The notes under the pieces were generated by a model. It saw nothing but the letters and a program-made list of their open reading frames with translations. It searched no databases and was not told where the DNA came from. A stretch of 64,000 nt of DNA, from the NCBI GenBank assembly GCA_963775895.1, contig CAVZKL010000016.1:9441-73440 (forward strand), given 5' to 3'. Shown here piece by piece: positions 7,721 through 41,656 of the stretch. The position numbers were made by a program, and so were the translations under genes. Numbering within the stretch: the stretch's first letter is position 1; each line of letters opens with the position of its first letter. This DNA is from Candidatus Bathyarchaeota archaeon. GTDB lineage: Archaea; Thermoproteota; Bathyarchaeia; Bathyarchaeales; Bathycorpusculaceae.

Positions 7721-10700
7721 TTGAAATTGACTGAAATATCGAAAGAAGATACCCATGTGATGCTGGACGCATTTTTTAAAGATAAAGGCTTGGTTCGTCA
7801 GCATTTAGACTCTTTTAACGAGTTTATTGATCGGGGACTGCAAGAAGTGATAGATGAAGTAGGCGAGATCCCAATTGAAGTCCCTGAAAGCCCGTACAAG
7901 GTTAAGCTAGGTCAAATCTGGATCATTGACCCTCAGACGAGAATAACCGGACCATACGCGACCGAAGTGGACGGGACCAAACATGAAATCTACCCGTTGG
8001 AAGCCAGACTCAGAAACCTGACTTACGCAGCGCCTGTTGCCCTTGAAATGACTCCCGTCATAGATGGGCGAGAACAGGACACCGAACTCGTCTACATCGG
8101 AAACATCCCTGTGATGTTGAAGTCAAAACTGTGCTTCCTGTCGCAATTGTCAAGAGAAGAACTGATTGCATGCGGAGAGGACCCTGATGATCCTGGGGGT
8201 TATTTCGTCGTCAACGGTTCAGAGCGTGTAATAGTCGCTATGGAGGATTTGGCGCCCAACCGCATAATCGTGGATATTGATGAAAAGGGCGCAACACCAG
8301 TTTACATGTCAAAAATATTCTCGACTACGGTTGGCTTCAGAGCAAGAATCGAATTGAAGATCAAATCCGACGGTGCGCTTTACGTTTCTATGCCGGGTGT
8401 TCCTTCTGAAGTTCCGTTCGTCGTGTTGATGCGGGCCCTAGGGCTTGAATCAGACAGAGAGATCGCTGAAGCAATTTCTTTGGACAAAGACATTCAAGCT
8501 GTTTTAGACCCTTCTTATGAAAAGGCTTTAGGAGTGGACACGGCTAAAGACGCAATTCTGTTCATTGGCAACCGCGTTGCCCATGGACAAGTTGAAGAGT
8601 ACCGACTTCAGAAGGCCGTGACTGCAATAGACAAGAATTTCCTACCGCATATAGGAAGAATAGAACAAAAGAGAAGGGACAAAGCACTGTTCTTGGGCGA
8701 GATGGCCTGTAGAGCGATTGAACTGCAGCTTGGAAGGAGAAAGCCCGATGACAAAGATCATTTCAAAAACAAAAGGCTAAGGTTAGCAGGACCACTTCTT
8801 GCCGATCTATTTAGAGTCGCATTCAGAAACCTCACACGTGACATAAAATATCAGCTTGAACGCATCGGCGTGAAGGGTCCGATAATAACCGTTTCTGCTG
8901 CCGTTCGGCCTGGCATAATAGCTGAAAGGTTCCAACACGCCCTGGCAACGGGAAACTGGGGAAGGGGAAGAGTTGGCATAACTCAGCTTCTCGACAGGAC
9001 AAACCACATTTCAACGTTAAGTCATCTGCGACGATTACAGTCTCCACTGAGCAGGAGTCAACCCAACTTCGAAGCAAGAGACCTACACGCGACACATTGG
9101 GGGCGCTTGTGCCCGAACGAGACGCCTGAAGGTTCAAACTGTGGCCTGGTCAAGAACCTTGCCCTATCTGCGTCCATCTCCGTGGGCGTTAACCCAGAGA
9201 AGATCAAACAACTTTTGTTTGGTAGCGGTGTTACCCCAGTCCTTGAAGCCAGCAACGACTTGAAGCTCAACGGAGCCAAGGTCTTTGTTGACGGCAACAT
9301 CGTAGGCTACTGCAATAATCCTGAACAGTTGGCGCGAGAATTTAGGGACAAGAGACGGAGAAGCGAAACATCAACGGAAGTAAACATCGCTTACTTCTCA
9401 AAATCGCAGGTTGAAAGGGAAGAGATCTATATCAACTGCGACGAGGGCAGGGTCAGAAGAGCTCTTATAATAGTCGACAACGGCGTTCCAAGACTTCAAC
9501 CTGAACACGTGGAAAAGATCGCAACCGGAGAATGGGCGTGGGAAGATCTCGTAAAAAACGGTGCAGTTGAATACTTGGACGCTGAAGAAGAGGAAAACGC
9601 TTACGTGGCATTGAGCAATGAAAGTTTGGGATTGGACCACACTCATTTGGAAATCGCAACCTACACGATTCTTGGAATCTGCGCCTCAACAATTCCATAC
9701 GCCGAACACAACCAGTCACCGCGCAATTCCTATCAAGCAGCGATGGCAAAACAAGCATTAGGAGTCTATTCAACTAATTTCCAGCAACGTGTAGATTCAA
9801 GATCACACATCCTGCATTACCCGCAAGTGCCACTTGCAGAGACCGCCTTAATGGACACGATGGGCTACAAACTGCGCCCCTCAGGACAAAACTACGTTGT
9901 CGCCGTGCTTTCCTTCGAAGGCTACAACATGGAAGACGCCTTAGTCTTCAACAAAGCATCGATAGAAAGAGGCTTGGGCCGCTCCACTTTCTTCAGGATC
10001 TACGAAGCAGAATGCCGCCAATACCTCGGAGGGTTGAAAGACAAGTTCACTCTGCCTGAGGCAGGAACTCGTGGATACAGAGGCGAACAATACTATCGGT
10101 TGCTAGAACCAGACGGCATAATAGGGTTGGAATCAGGCGTTGCAGGCGGGGATGTGCTCATCGGTCGCATAAGTCCGCCAAGATTCCTAGAGGAGTACAA
10201 GGAATTTGAAGTCAAAGGTCCGTCAATGCGTGACACTTCGGTCGATATGCGTCCGTCAGAAACTGGCACTGTTGACGCTATTTTCATTACGGAATCTGGA
10301 GACGGGAGCAAGCTGGTTAAGGTCAGGGTCCGAGATCAGCGTGTGCCCGAGCTGGGCGACAAGTTTGCTTCGCGACACGGACAAAAAGGCGTTATCGGAC
10401 TGATTGTCCCTCAAGAAGACATGCCTTTCACGGAAGATGGAATCGTACCCGACTTGATCATCAATCCTCACGCCATTCCTTCGAGAATGACGGTTGGACA
10501 GTTCATAGAGTCGCTGGCTGGAAAAGTCGCTTCTGCGCGTGGAAAACCAGTCGATGGAACGCCGTTCTCAAACGAAGGACCAACTGAGCTTAGAACCGAG
10601 TTAATAAAGCTCGGTTTCAGCAGCACAGGTGCAGAAGTATTCTACAGCGGCGTCACTGGTCAGAAATTCGTGGCAGACGTTTACGTCGGTGTGGTTCACT

Positions 10701-20540: not shown

Positions 20541-21281
20541 CTAGACACTTCGTTGCTTCAGCCTGGTGAGAGAGCTCCTTTTTATTGTTGGTTTATATCT
20601 TGATCCGGCCCAAATTTCCTCCAATTGAGCCTTCCCTTTTTCTGTGAGATTGAAGGTTACCCCAACACCGTCGGATCCCCATGTCTCTTCTAATAATCCT
20701 CTCTTGACAAGCCTTGTTATCGTTTGTTTGGAAATGCTAAATCGTTCGTGTAGGTCGAGAAATGGCAAAGACCTACTTAGCAATGCTTGAAACAACTTGG
20801 CCTTTTCCGCACATTGCAGAGGCCCTGACTTGCTGTTTGCGGGCTTCTGGTACCGTGGCGCACACGCAAGGTTCGATCTTGCACGGCTTCCAGAAATTGC
20901 TCTTGCTGAGGTCACATTTAGCTTTGATATGAGAGAACAGTTAGCTTTTGGTTTCGTCGTATGATCCTCTGGGCTAGTTTTGTTGCTGAGTCTTGGAAGG
21001 TCGTCGTTCTCAAGTAGAGTGAAACTTGTCTCCTTCCAAGTGTGGGTTGGGCTCTTGTGATGAACGTATACAAATCCGCCAAGTTTCTTCAGGTTGCCGC
21101 TCGAGTCTTTGACAGTTTGAAATACGGGAGCTTCACTGACTAGGACTCGGCCCGACCTCGCAGCTTTCTGAAGATGGAAAACCGCAGTCTTTCTTGAAAC
21201 TCCATAGTGCTCGGCTATCTCGTGAACAAATCGTGGTCTTGACAAGAACTCTAAGAGGTCGATTCTGCGCGGTTTCCTCAT
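20541..21281 (-). CDS. Putative transcription regulator with N- and C-terminal (w)HTH domains
   Basis: HEIAEHYGVSRKTAVFHL and LVKRGLL...FNLTEKG. Confidence 0.6.
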   Translation of the reverse strand: MRKPRRIDLLEFLSRPRFVHEIAEHYGVSRKTAVFHLQKAARSGRVLVSEAPVFQTVKDSSGNLKKLGGFVYVHHKSPTHTWKETSFTLLENDDLPRLSNKTSPEDHTTKPKANCSLISKLNVTSARAISGSRARSNLACAPRYQKPANSKSGPLQCAEKAKLFQALLSRSLPFLDLHERFSISKQTITRLVKRGLLEETWGSDGVGVTFNLTEKGKAQLEEIWAGSRYKPTIKRSSLTRLKQRSV

Positions 21282-21410
21282 GTCTAACCACGTGAAAAAG
21301 AGTCATCCAGAGGTTATAAATGTATCCAGCGCATAATTATTGACAAGGCATTGGGCAAGAACGGATAAATATTTGGTCCTTGACATTTCGATTGACTTGG
21401 GAGAGAGTGG

Positions 21411-24236
21411 GTGCAGTTGTCATCAAAGGCCGAGACTTCAACCAAGACGGATTTGATGTACGAGATTGTCTACAACCCAGACTTTGTTCCAATTCGCTCA
21501 GCAAGAGTCACTGTCAAAACTACGCTAGTGGGCGGCAAAGCTTCCTACCTAATGCAAAATCATGTCACTGGAATTTACTATGAACCTGATGAATTGGCCA
21601 ATCTGATCTGGACTTCAACCGATGGAAAAAGAACTGTAAAAGAAATAGTGGAAGAAGTCCAGAAACAGAAACCGAAAGTCAAAGAAGATGACGTCACTGG
21701 AATATTGCTTTTTTTCGCAGAAGCCAGCCTATTGGTATCAAGTCCTGAACGGTTGAAGACTAAAAGGTTCAAGGTAGTCTCAGCCTTTGAAATGGATTTG
21801 ACATTGATCAACCAAAGTAAGGACTTTATACACTCCATCCACAACAAATTACGTCCAATCTTGAAGAGATCTTTGCTTTGGGCCGTCGTCATTTTCATAG
21901 TCCTGGGAGCAGCGCTGTTTGCAGTCCGATTCGTGAGCATCTTTGGCAACAAATCGAATTTCCAAATCCTCGGATCAACTGCGGTGGGTTTCTTTTTCTA
22001 TTATTTTGTGGCGCTTGCCCCCGTAATTGCAATCCACGAGATTTCTCACGGGCTAGCACTTGTTCATTATGGCGGAGAACCTGGAGAGATGGGTGCGGGA
22101 ATCTTCTATTTTGGTCCAATGTTCTACACAGAAACCACGGACGTTTGGACCTTGGAGAAAAGGCACAGGATAATGGTTTTCTTGGCAGGAAACATAAGCA
22201 CACTCTCGATCGGCTCCATATTCGCATTTATTACGTTTTTTGTAAAGTTTCCGCAACCTGCTGTGCTCGTGCTGACAATGGTTGCTTTCTATTGCTTCAA
22301 CATGTCCTTGTTCAACTTCGCTCCCCCCTTTGAGACGGATGGATACTACGTTCTTTCAGACTCTTTGGACCTGCCGAACCTGCGTCACGAATCTTACGGA
22401 TACGTGGGTTCGCTCTTGCGGCGAGCCCTTGGAAGAAAAGCAAAATCGAAAGCTTCGGTGCTGACGAGGCGAAAAAAGTGGATCCTCATTACGTATGCCG
22501 CGGTATCCATAGGATGGATAATTTACATCGTGTTTCAGACCTCGCTCTTTCTCAGTTACATGAGCCAAGACATCATGGTCATCGTTTCCAACATTCTTCA
22601 CACGATTTGGACTTTTCAAGCTGTTCCTGCTTCGATAATACTAGTCGCCGTACTGTCTGTGCTCTATTTTGGAATGCAAGTTCTCGGATACGGATCGCTT
22701 TTCTTGGCTGCTGCTAGAAAGGCAATTCGGAAACCCGTTCGCATCGAGGCGATACCTGACAGAGCCGTATCAGTTTTCGCGTATTTGCCGTCGCAGGCTC
22801 CAGAATCGCTTTCGAACAACTTGAGAACCAAGATGGAGAAGACAGCGGAAAAGTTCACGCATGACTTTGAGATAAGACAAATTGGACGGTCGTGCATTGC
22901 AGTTTTGAGAATGGGCGGAACTAGTCTAGCCTTCACTCAAATCAAAGACAACCTCAAGCGTGTGGAAGACGAGTTCAGAACAGCTTATGAGAAACTGATT
23001 CTGCATCACCAAGATCAACTTCAAAAGTCAATAGGGATTTGCTCTTCCGCCAATATGAAAATGACTAGATTGCTCGAAAAGGTGGCAAATGAATCCGTCA
23101 GTTCAGGCAATTCTGGAGCTCTCGCAATCGTCAATGCGTGCAAAGAGAAGCAGAAAGAGACAATCCATTACCTACTCACTTCCTCTTTTGGAACAGTGTG
23201 GACAATTGAAGTGCAGCCTGCCCACGAGTATCAGATTCAGAGGGAAATAATGCCCGAAATGCTCTTGGAAGACTTAACGTTGACAGATCTTTACGGTGAC
23301 TGCGAAAACTTCAAGAAGCGTATCGTTTTCGGTTTTGACTCGCTGACGAGATTGGCAGAAGACACCGAAGCCGGCCTAAAAGAAAGTCTTGCTCAGCCTC
23401 AGGAATACCAGCTGGTCGGCGTTTTCGAGCCTATTAGGAGTCGCATCACTTTTGTAGGAAGGACAGAGCAGTTGGGGAAGAAGCTTGATGTTTTTGCACC
23501 GTACTTCTTGGCCGAAACTTGGTCAGGCTACCTGGACAACTTGTTGACAGAAACGTGTTATGACATTGACGCCTTGAATAGAGTTCGTCTTCCAACCGCG
23601 AAACAGATGAAGGAAATGAGCGTTGGCGAGTTGGCCGTTCTAACCAAAGATCTTTCCGAGTTCGCGGAAAATCGGGAGCTAGTCGACAAGCGCATTCGAG
23701 GGTCAGAAGACACACTTTCCAAGATGAATCAACACATGCAAGAAGTGCGCGATGCGATAAAGCCCTCTGGGAATTATGAGATTGGGTTGCTGGACGCAGC
23801 GTTCAATGTCAACGCCGAAAACCTCGAGGCGATTCCAGTCAGAATAAGAGATTTCCGAAAACAATGGAGGACTGTATGCAAAGAACTTGACAGAATTGGA
23901 AAGTACGTCACCGATGAATACGAGAAGAGAAGAGGCGAGATCCGTCAAGAGAAGCGCAAGATGCTTAATGTATATCCGGCCGTTGTGGCCATTTCAACCC
24001 TGATTGCCGCGTGTAGCTTTCTGCCGACTTTTAGCATGTTCCAGATCCCGGTACTTTCAATAGCATTAATCGCGCAAGCTTTTTACTGGTTCGTTTTTTA
24101 TCGTAAGTGGAGATCGTTCCGCCGAGTTTCAAAGTATCCCACTGAAGCTTTCAGTCGTATCCATCTTCTCATTCTAGCGTGGACAGAAGCAATCTACGGA
24201 TACGTCACAACCGGCGACATTCTAGCTCCATTGTGA
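21411..24236 (+). CDS. PqqD/RRE-like domain + M50 membrane zinc peptidase + long unknown C-terminal region
   Basis: YLMQNHVTGIYY..LIW..DGKRTVKEI (RRE-like), HEISH, NFAPPFETDG, multiple TM helices. Confidence 0.85.
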   Translation: MQLSSKAETSTKTDLMYEIVYNPDFVPIRSARVTVKTTLVGGKASYLMQNHVTGIYYEPDELANLIWTSTDGKRTVKEIVEEVQKQKPKVKEDDVTGILLFFAEASLLVSSPERLKTKRFKVVSAFEMDLTLINQSKDFIHSIHNKLRPILKRSLLWAVVIFIVLGAALFAVRFVSIFGNKSNFQILGSTAVGFFFYYFVALAPVIAIHEISHGLALVHYGGEPGEMGAGIFYFGPMFYTETTDVWTLEKRHRIMVFLAGNISTLSIGSIFAFITFFVKFPQPAVLVLTMVAFYCFNMSLFNFAPPFETDGYYVLSDSLDLPNLRHESYGYVGSLLRRALGRKAKSKASVLTRRKKWILITYAAVSIGWIIYIVFQTSLFLSYMSQDIMVIVSNILHTIWTFQAVPASIILVAVLSVLYFGMQVLGYGSLFLAAARKAIRKPVRIEAIPDRAVSVFAYLPSQAPESLSNNLRTKMEKTAEKFTHDFEIRQIGRSCIAVLRMGGTSLAFTQIKDNLKRVEDEFRTAYEKLILHHQDQLQKSIGICSSANMKMTRLLEKVANESVSSGNSGALAIVNACKEKQKETIHYLLTSSFGTVWTIEVQPAHEYQIQREIMPEMLLEDLTLTDLYGDCENFKKRIVFGFDSLTRLAEDTEAGLKESLAQPQEYQLVGVFEPIRSRITFVGRTEQLGKKLDVFAPYFLAETWSGYLDNLLTETCYDIDALNRVRLPTAKQMKEMSVGELAVLTKDLSEFAENRELVDKRIRGSEDTLSKMNQHMQEVRDAIKPSGNYEIGLLDAAFNVNAENLEAIPVRIRDFRKQWRTVCKELDRIGKYVTDEYEKRRGEIRQEKRKMLNVYPAVVAISTLIAACSFLPTFSMFQIPVLSIALIAQAFYWFVFYRKWRSFRRVSKYPTEAFSRIHLLILAWTEAIYGYVTTGDILAPL

Positions 24237-24296
24237 AGACGCAAAAAAAGGAAATAAACCCTAAAAAGGGCGGTTTTGCGCGTAGATAGTTCCTCC

Positions 24297-24557
24297 CTAC
24301 TCCACTTTTGTTGGTGTATGAGTGCCTAACTTTGTTGCTACGTGGGTGCCTAACTTTGTTGGTGTATGAGTGCCTAACTTTGTTGCTACGTGGGTGCCTA
24401 ACTTTGTTGGTGTATGAGTGCCTAACTTTGTTGCTACGTGGGTGCCTAACTTTGTTGGTGTATGAGTGCCTAGTCTTACCGCCATTTTTGTGGGTTCTCT
24501 GAGCTCTGGAACGACTCTCACCTTCTCGTCAGGCTTAACAACCTTTTTTTCTTTCAT
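24297..24557 (-). CDS. Repeat-containing peptide, candidate multicore precursor (86 aa)
   Basis: GGAGGTGA SD upstream and TATA-like TTTTAAAT further upstream; 28-aa leader + 7 octapeptide repeats + VE. Confidence 0.8.
   Translation of the reverse strand: MKEKKVVKPDEKVRVVPELREPTKMAVRLGTHTPTKLGTHVATKLGTHTPTKLGTHVATKLGTHTPTKLGTHVATKLGTHTPTKVE
24307..24472. repeat. Tandem repeat: 3.5 perfect 48-bp units, each two alternating 24-mers
   Basis: A = tttgttggtgtatgagtgcctaac, B = tttgttgctacgtgggtgcctaac, order ABABABA. Confidence 0.98.
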
Positions 24558-24718
24558 TCAGTTTTCACCTCCAATTAGAGCGCTTTTCACACACTTCATG
24601 TAAGTGGCGATTTAATTTAAAAGATTGTTTGAAGATCATGATATACACGTAACAGTAAGACTTTTCTTACGATACGAACATATGAGTGATCTAAGCAGCA
24701 AAAGGTGGACATTGGAAG

Positions 24719-24922
24719 ATGAAGCGAGAACCAAAGGCTGAAACTGAAGGAACAGTGGAGGCGATTTTTAGGGGTCAATCAAGGATGACGGCTCGGGGGC
24801 AGATAACCGTGCCCACCGAAGTGAGGAAGAAGTTTGGACTGAGACCTGGAGATATCTTGTGTTTTTTGGAGATGGAAGGAACAGTCATTCTTAAGCTAGG
24901 ACCCCTCGTACTCACCGAATAG
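24719..24922 (+). CDS. AbrB/MazE/SpoVT family DNA-binding protein
   Basis: RMTARGQITVPTEVRKKFGLRPGD. Confidence 0.9.
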   Translation: MKREPKAETEGTVEAIFRGQSRMTARGQITVPTEVRKKFGLRPGDILCFLEMEGTVILKLGPLVLTE

Positions 24923-24966
24923 TCTTTTTCAGATGTATGTTGCCCGCGCGAGCGCGCGCGCCAATT

Positions 24967-27579
24967 CTAGCTACTGGTGGTGGAGGGCTCGCCAGTAGGG
25001 TATAACGCATTAGAGGGCTTTTCGATCTCAATCAACAGTAAATTCAGCTTCTCGACGTTGATTCTACTGCCGAGCTTCTCGTACAATTTCTTTGCCTTTT
25101 CAATCTGTGCTCTTGCGGCGGAGAGTTTTCGTTGTCTTCCAAGGGCCCAAGCATAGTCGGTCCTAGCCATTGCTTCATGCAAAACCGGGGCCATAGCCCC
25201 GCTTAGCAACTCAAAAAACTTTTCAAAATGGCTATTTGCTTCATCCCATTGACCTTTGGCTGCAAATATGACGGCTTCCGTGCGAGCACCTACCGCTTGG
25301 GCCAGTTTACTTGATCCACGACTGGTAGCCGCATAGGATTTGGTGAATTTCTCCATATATTCCTCCAAGCGTTTAAGCTCTCCGAGTTTTGCATAATCTC
25401 TTGCGATGTTCGAGTAGATCATACTTTGAATGTAGTACGAATCCGTTTTCTCCGCATATTTGAGTCCCTTGAGTGAGTCATCAAGCGCTTCTTTTAGCTC
25501 GCCCAAGGATTCGTGAAGCAAACCCGAATACAGTCTGGCCCAAGCCATTCTGTTATACTCGCCTATTTTCTCCCCTATCCTGATCACTTTATCCCAGCTA
25601 TCAAGAGCCTCCTGATGAGAACCACGCGTGAATTGAGCGTTTCCCATCCAGAAATAAGCCTCGGTCTCTTTGCGCGAGTTTCCTATTTTTTCGTATAATT
25701 CGATCGCGCGTTGGAGAAAACGGACAGATTCTTCACCTTGAGAGTTCGCCACGTAAACAGATCCAATTTCCAGCAACGCATCGGCCACGTCAGGATCAGA
25801 GTTCTTCTCCTCAAAAATCTGCAGGCAGTTCTCCAATTCGTTCAACGCACTTGCTATTGAAATGTTACCTCTGAAGGTATTGGTTTTTGTCCTGTACATT
25901 TGAACCCTTGCGTATTCTAGACTACTAAAACGAGAGTCTTTCTCAGCTTGGTCCGCCAATTCCAATGCATGGGGCATGTCCCCCCTGTTGAAAGAAGCAG
26001 TCATAGCCTTCCTAAGAGCGCGAAGTCTCAACTCACCCGATTCCGAGATGTTGCTCAATAACTCGAGTTTTTTCGCAGCTCCCTCAAATCTACCCATGGC
26101 TGAAAGGGCATCTCCTAGCCCTTCTAGAGCAGTAAGTCTCTCAGCAGCGTATTTCGGATCCTCCGATGTAATTTTCAGTACATATTCGAAATGCTTTACA
26201 GCTTCGCTATTACTGAACCTTTTCAGAGCATCTTCACCAGCCGCGATACTGTACGGTATCGATTTTTCCCTGTTTCCTGCTTGACCGTAGTGAAATGCCA
26301 AGTCGTTGACCGGCAATTCTGTGGCTTGCATACTGAAATTCTCTATTTTCTCCGCGACTCTCTCGTGATACTCGCGCTTTAGAGGTGCAGACATTTCCTC
26401 GTATAGGACTTCACGAAACTTGGCGTGACCAAACTTGTACACGTTCTCAACTGGATGAATCAAAAGAGTCGAGCGTGCGATTACGTTCAGAGTCTCCAGA
26501 ACAGTCAATCTATCTTCAGATAGAACTGCTCCGAGCAGTGATGGATCAAACCGTTCTCCAATCGCAGATCCTAGATCAAGCATTCTCCTTTGAACCGTGT
26601 TCAAGCGGTTTAGCCGATACAGTATAACGTCTTTCACTTTTGTTGGTATATCCAGTTCCTTTGCATCAAGACACCATGTGCCATCTTTACAGACTAGGCC
26701 ACCGGATTCAATAAGCATCCTAACGGATTCGACTGCAAAAAGCGGGTTCCCTTGGGTGTCTCTTGAAAGTTTTTCGACAAATTCCGGTTCAATCGCCCCG
26801 TTGACCATCAGCTCAGCAAGCTTCTCGACGTCAGGCTTGTCTAGGTTGAGGATTTTTATCTCGGCGAACAGATCTTCACGCCTCATCAATTGCAGGGTTT
26901 CACCCAATGGATTAGGATGCCCTTCGTAGTCCTGACTCACTTCTTCAATTCGAAAAGTACCTATTATGAGAATCTTCGAGGGCCTAATAGCGCGTGACGC
27001 ATAATGAAGCAACGCTAAAGAGGCAGAGTCGGCCCAATGAAGGTCATCAATGAACAGAACTAAGGGTTTCTCCGCCGAAATTGAAAGTAGGGCGCTCAAC
27101 ACAGCCGCATACGTCTTGTCTTTCCTGATTTCGGCGCTCAACCCCGGTTGAGTGTTTGTTGTCTTGTGGTGCTTTGGGCCTTTGAGCCACCCTGTTATTC
27201 CAATGGGTTCAGCCTCGAACACCTCATTTCCCTTCAACCAGCCCACTATTCCTAGATACTCCTTTGCAGATTTGTTGGCATCTTGATCTTGACCATAAGA
27301 GTGGAGGGTGTTGAAAGCTTCTATGAAGGGAAAGTATGGGATTGGAGTTCTACTGATGCAAAATCCCGTCAAAACACTGACGTTCTTCTCTCTGATCGTC
27401 TTCAAAAATTCCTTCACAAGTCTAGTCTTTCCAGCTCCAGCTTCACCGAAAACAAACACAGTGGCGCCTATTCCCGAAGACGCCGAATCAAATAGCCTTT
27501 TCAGTTGTTGAAATTCCGGCTCTCTGCCGACAAACGTAGGCTCAGTGAGCATTGAAGGCGTGTAAGGATTTTCAGCCAT
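24967..27579 (-). CDS. STAND-type AAA ATPase with C-terminal TPRs
   Basis: FVGRE, GEAGAGKTRL, LFIDDLHWAD, GNPLF, helical TPR-like repeats. Confidence 0.9.
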   Translation of the reverse strand: MAENPYTPSMLTEPTFVGREPEFQQLKRLFDSASSGIGATVFVFGEAGAGKTRLVKEFLKTIREKNVSVLTGFCISRTPIPYFPFIEAFNTLHSYGQDQDANKSAKEYLGIVGWLKGNEVFEAEPIGITGWLKGPKHHKTTNTQPGLSAEIRKDKTYAAVLSALLSISAEKPLVLFIDDLHWADSASLALLHYASRAIRPSKILIIGTFRIEEVSQDYEGHPNPLGETLQLMRREDLFAEIKILNLDKPDVEKLAELMVNGAIEPEFVEKLSRDTQGNPLFAVESVRMLIESGGLVCKDGTWCLDAKELDIPTKVKDVILYRLNRLNTVQRRMLDLGSAIGERFDPSLLGAVLSEDRLTVLETLNVIARSTLLIHPVENVYKFGHAKFREVLYEEMSAPLKREYHERVAEKIENFSMQATELPVNDLAFHYGQAGNREKSIPYSIAAGEDALKRFSNSEAVKHFEYVLKITSEDPKYAAERLTALEGLGDALSAMGRFEGAAKKLELLSNISESGELRLRALRKAMTASFNRGDMPHALELADQAEKDSRFSSLEYARVQMYRTKTNTFRGNISIASALNELENCLQIFEEKNSDPDVADALLEIGSVYVANSQGEESVRFLQRAIELYEKIGNSRKETEAYFWMGNAQFTRGSHQEALDSWDKVIRIGEKIGEYNRMAWARLYSGLLHESLGELKEALDDSLKGLKYAEKTDSYYIQSMIYSNIARDYAKLGELKRLEEYMEKFTKSYAATSRGSSKLAQAVGARTEAVIFAAKGQWDEANSHFEKFFELLSGAMAPVLHEAMARTDYAWALGRQRKLSAARAQIEKAKKLYEKLGSRINVEKLNLLLIEIEKPSNALYPTGEPSTTSS

Positions 27580-41212: not shown

Positions 41213-41656
41213 ATGGTGGATGAAGATCCAGTCATGACAATCGACAAGCCTCACTTCACGGTGAAGCTCTACAAGGATTTGCTGAAAGTGGATTTGAAAG
41301 AGGGCATTAGAAGAGAACTCGAAGCCTTTGCAGAAGCGAAGCCAGCGTTACGTGAAAGTGTGGGCTTGCTATTCCAAACAATCATTCCTCTTGATGTCCG
41401 CCTGAGAGACATATCGTCCGTAGGTTTGGACAAGAAAGGAAGAGTGAAAGTGGCAATCCCCACGCGAAGAGACCTCACAATCCCTGTTGAAGGAGAAGAG
41501 GCTCAACGACTAATTGACAAACTGAACGATCTAATCCAGCCAGAAAAAGAGAGAATGGTAAGGGACAAGGCAGCGGCAAAAAGGGCTGAAACGGAAGAAA
41601 CACGCAGAGTATCAGGAGCCGAAAAGGACCTTTCGGGTGCAATGTTCAAAAAATAA
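41213..41656 (+). CDS. Hypothetical protein
   Basis: 147-aa ORF with gaggt upstream and normal composition. Confidence 0.7.
   Translation: MVDEDPVMTIDKPHFTVKLYKDLLKVDLKEGIRRELEAFAEAKPALRESVGLLFQTIIPLDVRLRDISSVGLDKKGRVKVAIPTRRDLTIPVEGEEAQRLIDKLNDLIQPEKERMVRDKAAAKRAETEETRRVSGAEKDLSGAMFKK

Follow-up and report, generated by a model that had tools for sequence, protein, structure and literature searches.

We studied a 64,000-nucleotide (nt) stretch of contig CAVZKL010000016.1 from a Candidatus Bathyarchaeota archaeon (the window, in whose positions coordinates are given below) and found within it a conserved Bathyarchaeia gene cassette that consists of a winged helix–turn–helix (wHTH) regulator, a membrane protease of 941 amino acids (aa), a small repeat peptide and an AbrB-type DNA-binding protein. 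The repeat peptide, of 86 aa, is encoded tail-to-tail with the protease, across a gap of 60 nt. On balance, we consider it probable, if far from certain, that the cassette is a Bathyarchaeia-specific peptide-maturation system akin to those of peptides made on ribosomes and then modified post-translationally (RiPPs): a RiPP recognition element (RRE)-like domain of the protease would dock the leader of the peptide, its M50 core would cut the precursor and the cationic repeat part would be released. This reading is drawn from the homology of the protease to the daptide peptidase, from the precedent of EpeP and from the tight synteny of the genes.

A conserved four-gene cassette

The 107 loci that carry a protease homologue form 87 groups at a nucleotide identity of at least 97% in the protease gene, and 75 of these groups make up the core family, at least 37% identical to the window protein. 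A repeat peptide lies beside the protease gene in 55 groups, including 40 of the 42 with at least 400 nt on both flanks and 48 of the 51 with at least 400 nt downstream. A preliminary description of the locus, made from the letters of the window alone, had named protease homologues without neighbouring repeat peptides as one finding that would refute it; the 40 of 42 dereplicated loci instead tie the peptide to the protease. Where the peptide gene was found (70 loci), it is convergent with the protease gene in 65 and upstream on the same strand in 5, and it still adjoins the protease gene in loci L005 and L006, in which the gene order is rearranged.

Both regulators that the preliminary description had placed next to this pair prove to be conserved partners. 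By tblastn, all 46 loci of at least 7 kb contain a wHTH homologue and 40 of them an AbrB homologue. Where at least 1 kb of upstream DNA is available, wHTH is present in 72 of 73 loci; where the same length is available downstream, AbrB is present in 52 of 58. A homologue of the STAND-type ATPase with TPR repeats occurs in only 6 of the 46 long loci; that gene is a neighbour in the window genome and not a member of the cassette. The preliminary description had also noted that enzymes of the YcaO, LanM, ATP-grasp and radical SAM types are missing from the adjacent genes; they are likewise absent from the conserved neighbours and from the seven window proteins scanned with Pfam. The five genes that it had listed all recur, in position and orientation, in the list of open reading frames (ORFs):

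20541–21281, minus strand: wHTH gene (246 aa, from the ORF list), divergent from the protease gene
21411–24236, plus strand: gene of the 941-aa membrane protein (RRE-like domain, M50 core, family-specific domain, two terminal membrane helices)
21411–21785, plus strand: predicted PqqD/RRE-like N-terminal domain (residues ~1–125; Pfam PqqD match at 48–95)
21858–22700, plus strand: predicted M50/site-2-protease membrane core (residues ~150–430; six hydrophobic segments)
22035–22049, plus strand: HEISH motif in the M50 core (residues 209–213)
22332–22346, plus strand: ETDGY motif in the M50 core (residues 308–312)
22728–23981, plus strand: family-specific C-terminal domain (residues 440–857), predicted to be cytoplasmic
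23982–24074, plus strand: two C-terminal hydrophobic segments (residues ~858–888, from a hydropathy scan), then a K/R-rich tail
24297–24557, minus strand: 86-aa precursor-like peptide gene, leader plus tandem repeats (from the ORF, the Shine–Dalgarno sequence and the family leader)
24474–24557, minus strand: peptide leader, residues 1–28 (MKEKKVVKPDEKVRVVPELREPTKMAVR), by match to the leader model
24307–24472, minus strand: peptide repeat region, 3.5 copies of a 48-nt unit (Tandem Repeats Finder score 332, 100% matches)
24565–24572, minus strand: Shine–Dalgarno sequence of the peptide gene (GGAGGTGA), 7 nt upstream of its ATG
24611–24622, minus strand: putative AT-rich TATA-like box upstream of the peptide gene, read by eye
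24719–24922, plus strand: gene of an AbrB/SpoVT-type DNA-binding protein (67 aa), divergent from the peptide gene
24967–27579, minus strand: STAND-type ATPase (AAA_16) with TPR repeats (870 aa), by Pfam

The repeat peptide is encoded by a real gene

Taken by itself, the 86-aa ORF is no evidence of a gene, because a perfect DNA repeat keeps several frames open; in the window, three frames run open across the 48-nt repeat. A non-coding minisatellite between two genes, in which the ORF stays open by chance, would fit this 100% identical repeat, and it would fit the observation that none of six tested peptides has an exact sequence match in a collection of 15 billion proteins. We nonetheless regard this explanation as extremely improbable, given what is seen in the relatives of the window peptide. 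A strong Shine–Dalgarno 5-mer stands 4–20 nt before the ATG in 42 of the 44 complete peptide genes. The leader, which lies outside the repeat, is conserved: the N-terminal 25–35 residues of the peptides can be aligned across clades, and a leader hidden Markov model (HMM) matches the window peptide at E 2.3e-06 as well as peptides of other clades, to a protease identity as low as about 40%. The leader consensus, M-E-E-K..KP-EEK-(V/A)-K-(I/V)-(Y/F)-P-K-L, contains an invariant Pro at position 17 of the alignment. The window leader fits the family motif hydrophobic-P-(K/E)-hydrophobic, and the more distant clades have leader types of their own that retain a hydrophobic-Pro-x-hydrophobic motif. 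Across the 15 codons of the leader core, the median ratio of non-synonymous to synonymous substitution rates is 0.27 (132 of 465 pairs being unsaturated and thus usable).

The repeats themselves carry the same signature. In the 44 genes, nucleotide differences between successive units number 235, 93 and 1306 at codon positions 1, 2 and 3, respectively, and codon changes between neighbouring units are synonymous in 1259 cases and non-synonymous in 149, the latter count being lowered by the delimitation of the repeat region by amino-acid identity. At the median, the DNA repeats are only 77% alike (at least 95% in 9 of the 44 genes) while the amino-acid units are near-identical, and 1259 silent changes inside identical units cannot stem from a non-coding repeat. 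The minus-strand 86-aa frame is therefore a real gene: its leader is conserved, a ribosome-binding site precedes it and the relatives show the codon-position pattern of coding DNA. Protein-level selection acts on both the leader and the repeat unit.

The peptide is a gene that gene callers miss. A profile search with the peptide alignment against 5.8 billion proteins returned nothing at E≤0.001, a result that is uninformative since the leader is short and the tail of low complexity. Two further frames over the repeat, a 64-aa ORF at 24308–24502 on the plus strand and a second frame on the minus strand, have no conserved flank; they are open merely since the unit lacks stops and should not be annotated.

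Short-read assemblies lose or truncate the peptide gene systematically. A search for sequencing runs that contain the locus listed 16 DNA runs and no RNA run; the Logan contigs of four DNA runs halt at the window repeat and none bridges it, so that they carry no information on copy number. Many other contigs stop inside the peptide repeat, at their 3′ ends (L031, L040, L046, L062, L079 and L100) or their 5′ ends (L004/L009/L041 and L053), and repeat numbers taken from short-read assemblies may be misreported. Two loci whose proteases are both 74% identical to that of the window, L007 (peptide at 8780–9112) and L030 (5529–5723), share the same leader and have 10 and 8 KPTM units, respectively; in L007, the peptide frame does not stop where it usually does and shares 19 nt with the protease gene. 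Either a change in repeat number and frame or an assembly error would account for this contrast.

Repeat units are uniform within genes and differ between lineages

Tandem units follow the leader in 44 of 44 complete peptide genes. In the window, the unit encodes LGTHTPTK and LGTHVATK alternately, its 24-nt halves differing at five bases, two of them silent, and the peptide ends in ...TKVE. Across the 44 genes, the unit period is 4 in 22 genes, 6 in 8, 8 in 4, 12 in 4, 5 in 2, and 10, 13, 16 and 18 in one each; peptides are 60–191 residues long. The tails consist largely of Ala (27%), Arg (13%), Pro (13%), Lys (12%) and Thr (11%), with 0.3% His and no Cys, Trp or Asp, and have a median net charge of +0.24 per residue. 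Nearly all units contain one Lys or Arg, and they follow one another head-to-tail without spacers. An exception in composition is the peptide of L090, which has near-neutral, helical-looking repeats of 10 residues. The translation of the window peptide contains no signal sequence and no hydrophobic segment.

Units are uniform within a gene and differ between lineages, with stepwise shifts between close ones (KTPM versus KPTM, KGGLGA versus KSGLGA). In two long arrays, APSR ×19 and ARSP ×20, neighbouring units differ by 51 and 57 synonymous changes, respectively, and by no non-synonymous change. The preliminary description had proposed that the precursor is cut into octapeptides and that these might serve as His-based metal ligands. 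Because the repeat unit differs between lineages, both ideas could apply to the window genome at most, and neither is supported: half of the genes have a period of 4, the range is 4–18, the 8/16 pattern is peculiar to the window genome and His is nearly absent from the family's repeats.

The protease joins an RRE-like domain, an M50 core and a family-specific domain

By profile comparison, residues ~1–125 of the 941-aa protein are PqqD/RRE-like, in line with the preliminary description and with Pfam, NCBIfam, precomputed PF05402 and PDB profiles alike. The Pfam PqqD match scores 23.1 bits (cut-off 23.4), precomputed PF05402 annotations are present on 38 of 109 full-length-type relatives, and the family profile matches the lasso-peptide RRE TbiB1 (5v1u; E 0.0022, profile positions 41–108) best among PDB entries, followed by a lasso PqqD chaperone (E 0.063) and PqqCD (E 0.091). 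A complex prediction for residues 1–135 with residues 1–45 of the peptide, using alignments of both, scored 0.01 against a mark of 0.32 in runs without controls, and is evidence neither for nor against binding.

The membrane core gives a weak Pfam M50 match and clear NCBIfam ones: daptide_HExxH (NF041824) at E 8.8e-45, with 153.5 bits (cut-off 300) between residues 68–397 and profile positions 40–357 of 379, and YydH/LiaK at E 2.2e-11, with 43.9 bits (cut-off 225). H209, E210, H213, P305, D310 and G311 are invariant in 47 sequences, and hydropathy places the motifs within membrane segments. The predicted M50 catalytic motifs are thus intact, which upholds the M50 assignment of the preliminary description. 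According to hydropathy and the positive-inside rule, K/R-rich loops assign one side of the membrane, which we take to be the cytoplasm, to the RRE-like domain, to the loop that follows the DG motif, to residues 426–857 and to the C-terminal tail.

The C-terminal domain of about 430 aa has no counterpart that we could recognize. Its model (residues 440–857) has a mean predicted local distance difference test score (pLDDT) of 85.3 and a predicted template modelling score (pTM) of 0.81 (84.8 and 0.82 for the alpha/beta part alone), and shows an alpha/beta region with a ferredoxin-like core followed by a long helical bundle. Foldseek against the PDB gave nothing at E≤0.001, either for the 431-residue model (best 0.09) or for a 261-residue model (best 8.5e-3, of the M16/bc1-core type, with a root-mean-square deviation of ~20 Å). 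VIA-align gave a best Z of 9.3 for the whole domain, from long helices only (spectrin/STAT-like), with 8.6 on a second look, and 6.5 for the alpha/beta part (LapD GGDEF), followed by cyclase-, palm- and ferredoxin-like folds at Z 5–6, all below a meaningful level. M16-like, CorA-like and GGDEF/cyclase-like readings of the domain were dropped, the fold matches being below that level. In the model, the invariant acidic residues E519 and D621 fall in predicted helices and not on the strands that bear palm-type catalytic residues.

Sequence searches point the same way. PDB sequences gave only coiled-coil matches to the profile of the domain, and the ESM Atlas gave no usable match for residues 440–870. 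Against 1,835,955,588 representative proteins, the profile found 55 at E≤0.001; the full-length matches all carry the domain at ~431–860 of proteins of 890–970 aa, and the remainder are fragment-like or coiled-coil. As judged from these searches, the domain is confined to this architecture.

The cassette protease is a relative, not a member, of known systems

In daptide clusters, the leader is removed by a peptidase in which an RRE and a site-2 protease are fused (10.1101/2023.03.08.531785). This peptidase, MpaP/DapP, is also the best family match of the 941-aa protein, whose module of a predicted PqqD-type RRE at the N terminus and an HExxH M50 membrane core behind it is the same. The 941-aa protein, however, stays below the 300-bit equivalog cut-off, has an archaeal host and carries 540 residues (the C-terminal domain and two membrane helices) that the daptide model of 379 positions lacks. 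Further features of daptide clusters include MpaB (DUF-RRE), an oxidative decarboxylase, an aminotransferase and a methyltransferase; the cassette shows none of these, and no MpaB/C/D/M-type gene is among its conserved neighbours, which comprise wHTH, AbrB and three families that give no Pfam match of this kind. Daptide precursors are described as ending in an invariant Thr, which the cassette peptides lack.

EpeP is thought to both cleave and export EpeX (PMC10885120). With YydH/EpeP/LiaK, the cassette protein shares detectable homology and an arrangement in which a membrane M50 enzyme is encoded beside the small ribosomal peptide that it matures or, in the cassette, would mature. The radical-SAM epimerase and ABC transporter of the epipeptide (YydF/EpeX) systems are absent from the scanned window proteins and the conserved neighbours of the cassette, and the epipeptide substrate is a short single core in contrast to the long repeat peptide here. 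Because both curated cut-offs are missed and every other defining daptide or epipeptide gene is absent, the cassette protease is, on sequence grounds, a relative and not a member of these systems.

The next-best relatives are bacterial PqqD–M50–HlyD fusions of ~700 aa (in IMG, 'putative peptide zinc metalloprotease protein'), which match the first 20–40% of the query at E 1e-21 to 6e-9. They have the same predicted front of RRE and M50 but end in HlyD-type adaptor domains (PF25984, PF25919, PF25954 and others) in place of the family-specific domain. RseP, SpoIVFB and MJ0392 are site-2 proteases whose HExxH and ...P....DG motifs lie in membrane segments as in the 941-aa protein; the family profile matches MJ0392 (3b4r) only weakly (E 0.72). 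Canonical regulated intramembrane proteolysis involves a PDZ or CBS domain and a membrane-spanning substrate; the 941-aa protein has neither domain according to Pfam, has an RRE-like domain instead, and its candidate substrate has no membrane segment.

Among repeat precursors, yeast alpha-factor, fungal Kex2 repeat proteins and WprP2 RiPP precursors carry several identical short units behind an N-terminal targeting part. As commonly described, these pro-peptides resemble the cassette peptides in having lineage-specific units within one precursor; they differ in having spacers or dibasic sites, serine proteases and the secretory pathway, whereas the cassette units follow head-to-tail with one basic residue. 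Repeated units behind one leader, found in all 44 peptide genes, are also the layout of multi-core RiPP precursors; a class-defining tailoring enzyme, however, is not among the conserved neighbour families, and the head-to-tail units leave no room for recognition or cleavage sequences around each core. RRNPP signalling pairs a secreted pro-peptide with a genetically linked TPR receptor that has an output domain. The preliminary description had suggested that the STAND–TPR protein might sense the peptide, an idea that the rarity of this gene beside the protease, the lack of a signal sequence in the peptide and an AimR model score of 14 bits (cut-off 70) all argue against.

Our literature searches listed no paper that describes the cassette in its title or abstract; the supplementary family lists of RRE-mining papers may contain the protein family. 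As far as our searches show, three things are new, namely the C-terminal domain, the family of repeat peptides and the pairing of wHTH with AbrB.

Proposed mechanism and alternatives

In the mechanism that we favour, the precursor would consist of a Lys/Glu-rich leader of ~28 residues, ending in hydrophobic-Pro-(Lys/Glu)-hydrophobic, and a lineage-specific, positively charged repeat tail. The leader would most likely dock onto the cytoplasmic PqqD-type RRE domain, and the fused M50 centre would cut the precursor near the junction of leader and repeat, at the inner membrane face, to free the tail. The C-terminal domain would probably handle the long repeat tail or couple cleavage to membrane passage, and the AbrB-type and wHTH proteins would control the two divergent promoter regions. 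We infer the docking, the cut and its position, export and the role of the product from homology and synteny.

Several observations weigh against this mechanism. The role of the protease follows from homology and not from membership of a characterized family, its daptide score being far below the cut-off, and the PqqD score of the RRE-like domain, a sequence-only assignment, is just under its own. The scan found no peptide in three core-family groups whose flanks were usable: L070/L108, which has Ns in the flank; L088, which has another gene order and no upstream DNA; and L076, in which a weak repeat ORF with a 10-residue period, cut by the contig end, stayed under the score threshold. Exporters, immunity genes and tailoring enzymes are all absent from the conserved neighbour families. 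Every soluble part of the protease has a predicted place in the cytoplasm, which would fit an intracellular product equally well. Finally, distant relatives of the protease (<37% identity) lack the repeat peptide, and a gene for a cyclic nucleoside monophosphate (cNMP)-binding protein lies directly beside them in 8 of 12 loci; a class III cyclase–TPR gene is also present in 7 of these 8, and neither gene type is found in any of 95 core-family loci. The RRE–M50 module may serve cyclic-nucleotide signalling in these distant relatives, and the neighbourhoods hint that the role of the wider family is regulatory, not biosynthetic. The hosts of the distant relatives are Nitrososphaerales, other Bathyarchaeota and one Acidiferrales bacterium, and some have short forms of 430 aa; example loci are L018 (5517–10237) and L025 (3628–7805), along with L019, L023, L024, L026, L027 and L028.

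We see a rather small chance that the repeat unit is itself the product, a general form of the idea in the preliminary description: the M50 protein, or else other proteases that act after each Lys or Arg, would cut the precursor at every unit into short lineage-specific signal or antimicrobial peptides. With similarly limited probability, these would be LGTHTPTK and LGTHVATK here and peptides such as APAK, APSR, KTPM and GELKPR in other lineages; such short cationic peptides, released in many copies and made without a tailoring enzyme, might then form a class of ribosomal repeat peptides of their own, which we likewise think possible but not likely. The strong purifying selection on the unit speaks for such products, since the absence of non-synonymous change in the APSR and ARSP arrays is not what bulk charge alone would predict; so do the Lys or Arg in almost every unit and the uniformity of lineage-specific units within each gene, as in pheromone specificity groups. 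Dedicated proteases that cut repeat precursors uniformly exist for RiPPs (WprP2) and in fungi (Kex2-processed repeat proteins), to judge by published abstracts. Yet half of the genes would yield tetrapeptides, neither a spacer nor a flanking recognition site separates the units, M50 enzymes of RiPP pathways make one cut in the accounts consulted, and no exporter or receptor is conserved, the STAND–TPR gene being present in so few loci. To about the same low degree, we can credit an intracellular polycation, in which the leaderless tail would stay in the cell and bind DNA, RNA or another polyanion in the manner of histone H1 or protamine, the protease acting as a regulated-proteolysis switch. 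The basic tail, free of Cys, Trp and Asp, suits this role, as does the lack of a signal sequence or hydrophobic segment in the peptide, the predicted cytoplasmic side of the RRE, C-terminal domain and protease tail, the lack of a conserved exporter, the conservation of two DNA-binding regulators and the cNMP-signalling neighbourhoods of distant relatives. Many units also read (S/T/A)-P-x-(K/R), which resembles DNA-binding tails of the SPKK/AKAP type. Basic nucleic-acid-binding tails, however, usually tolerate drift, whereas here the exact unit is kept within a gene; the L090 repeats are near-neutral; characterized RRE–M50 relatives named in the accounts consulted serve secreted peptides; and a cassette with full-length forms in 2 of 401 sampled genomes of the class would be odd for a chromatin component.

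Less probable again is that the peptide is not a substrate of the protease at all: it might be a small basic protein under shared regulation, or one that inhibits or modulates the protease, with the RRE-like domain binding something else, such as a regulator. The link between peptide and protease is one of synteny, protease relatives without any repeat peptide exist and imply that the module can work with other partners, and the two genes, convergent in 65 of 70 loci, are not co-transcribed there. On the other side, the leader type tracks the protease clade across the family, the peptide gene stays beside the protease gene even where the order is rearranged, and a conserved leader of ~28 residues with a variable part behind it is how RRE-dependent precursors are built in the accounts consulted.

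The cassette would bring together the peptide-recognition domain that is known best from natural-product pathways in bacteria, a membrane protease of archaea and an unusual substrate, a conserved leader with lineage-specific tandem units that are identical as protein and drift as DNA. In anoxic sediments, peat and wetlands, Bathyarchaeia rank with the most abundant archaea, and we know of next to nothing about their interactions. If the proposed processing holds, a short peptide and one protein would offer a tractable entry into archaeal peptide biology, a new domain of ~430 aa to characterize and a recognizable search pattern for similar hidden genes. Should the unit instead be the product, the uncultivated Bathyarchaeia would here have their first system of communication or antagonism by peptides.

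Distribution and genomic neighbourhood

A word-seeded search returned 109 cluster representatives of the 941-aa protein at E≤2.4e-120, most of them 860–980 aa long and the few shorter ones truncated-looking; the close relatives belong to Candidatus Bathyarchaeia/Bathyarchaeota. The cassette is rare and patchy. It occurs in 5 of 61 nearest-relative genomes, that of the window included. Among 401 genomes sampled evenly across the class, 8 have a match at E≤1e-20, with the full-length form in two only (G000 and G059) and a short form of ~445 aa in five. The host assembly (1.77 Mb, 28 contigs) holds a single copy each of the protease gene and the peptide gene.

Two genomes of the same genus, G002 (L004/L009) and G009 (L005), encode proteases 53–54% identical to that of the window, with the peptide gene upstream on the same strand and the wHTH gene downstream. 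Their repeat units are unrelated to those of the window (AAKTRALSMAKS; ARTS/ARTN), and eight other genomes of the genus have no cassette match. This pattern suggests lateral movement or very fast divergence.

In the window, the wHTH protein matches Pfam HTH_11/HTH_5 at residues 4–48 (ArsR-like) and HVO_A0261_N at 157–222, and the 67-aa protein matches NCBIfam AbrB (E 5.8e-11) and Pfam MazE_antitoxin (28.2 bits). A search for operator-like repeats in the two divergent intergenic regions found nothing but one imperfect palindrome of 11 nt. The other window neighbours of the cassette among the seven Pfam-scanned proteins include a nitroreductase and an NmrA-like protein, and PADLOC gave only weak Csa3-HTH and TPR matches.

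Three more protein families, of ~98, ~148 and ~1100 aa, occur near the cassette in 22, 22 and 19 of the 46 long loci, respectively (for instance, L033 3771–4064, L033 8539–8967 and L036 290–3583), the largest with a weak DUF11/TRAP-beta match at its C terminus. We rejected them as cassette members: they are multi-copy and, in the window genome, located elsewhere (C16:50653–51006, which is window 41213–41566, and other contigs). The 870-aa STAND–TPR protein of the window matches Pfam AAA_16 at E 4.8e-30 and TPR_12 at E 9e-19; the STAND–TPR neighbour in L063 (6078–9404, minus strand) has an extra C-terminal KaiC-type ATPase domain (Pfam E 4e-08) that the window copy lacks.

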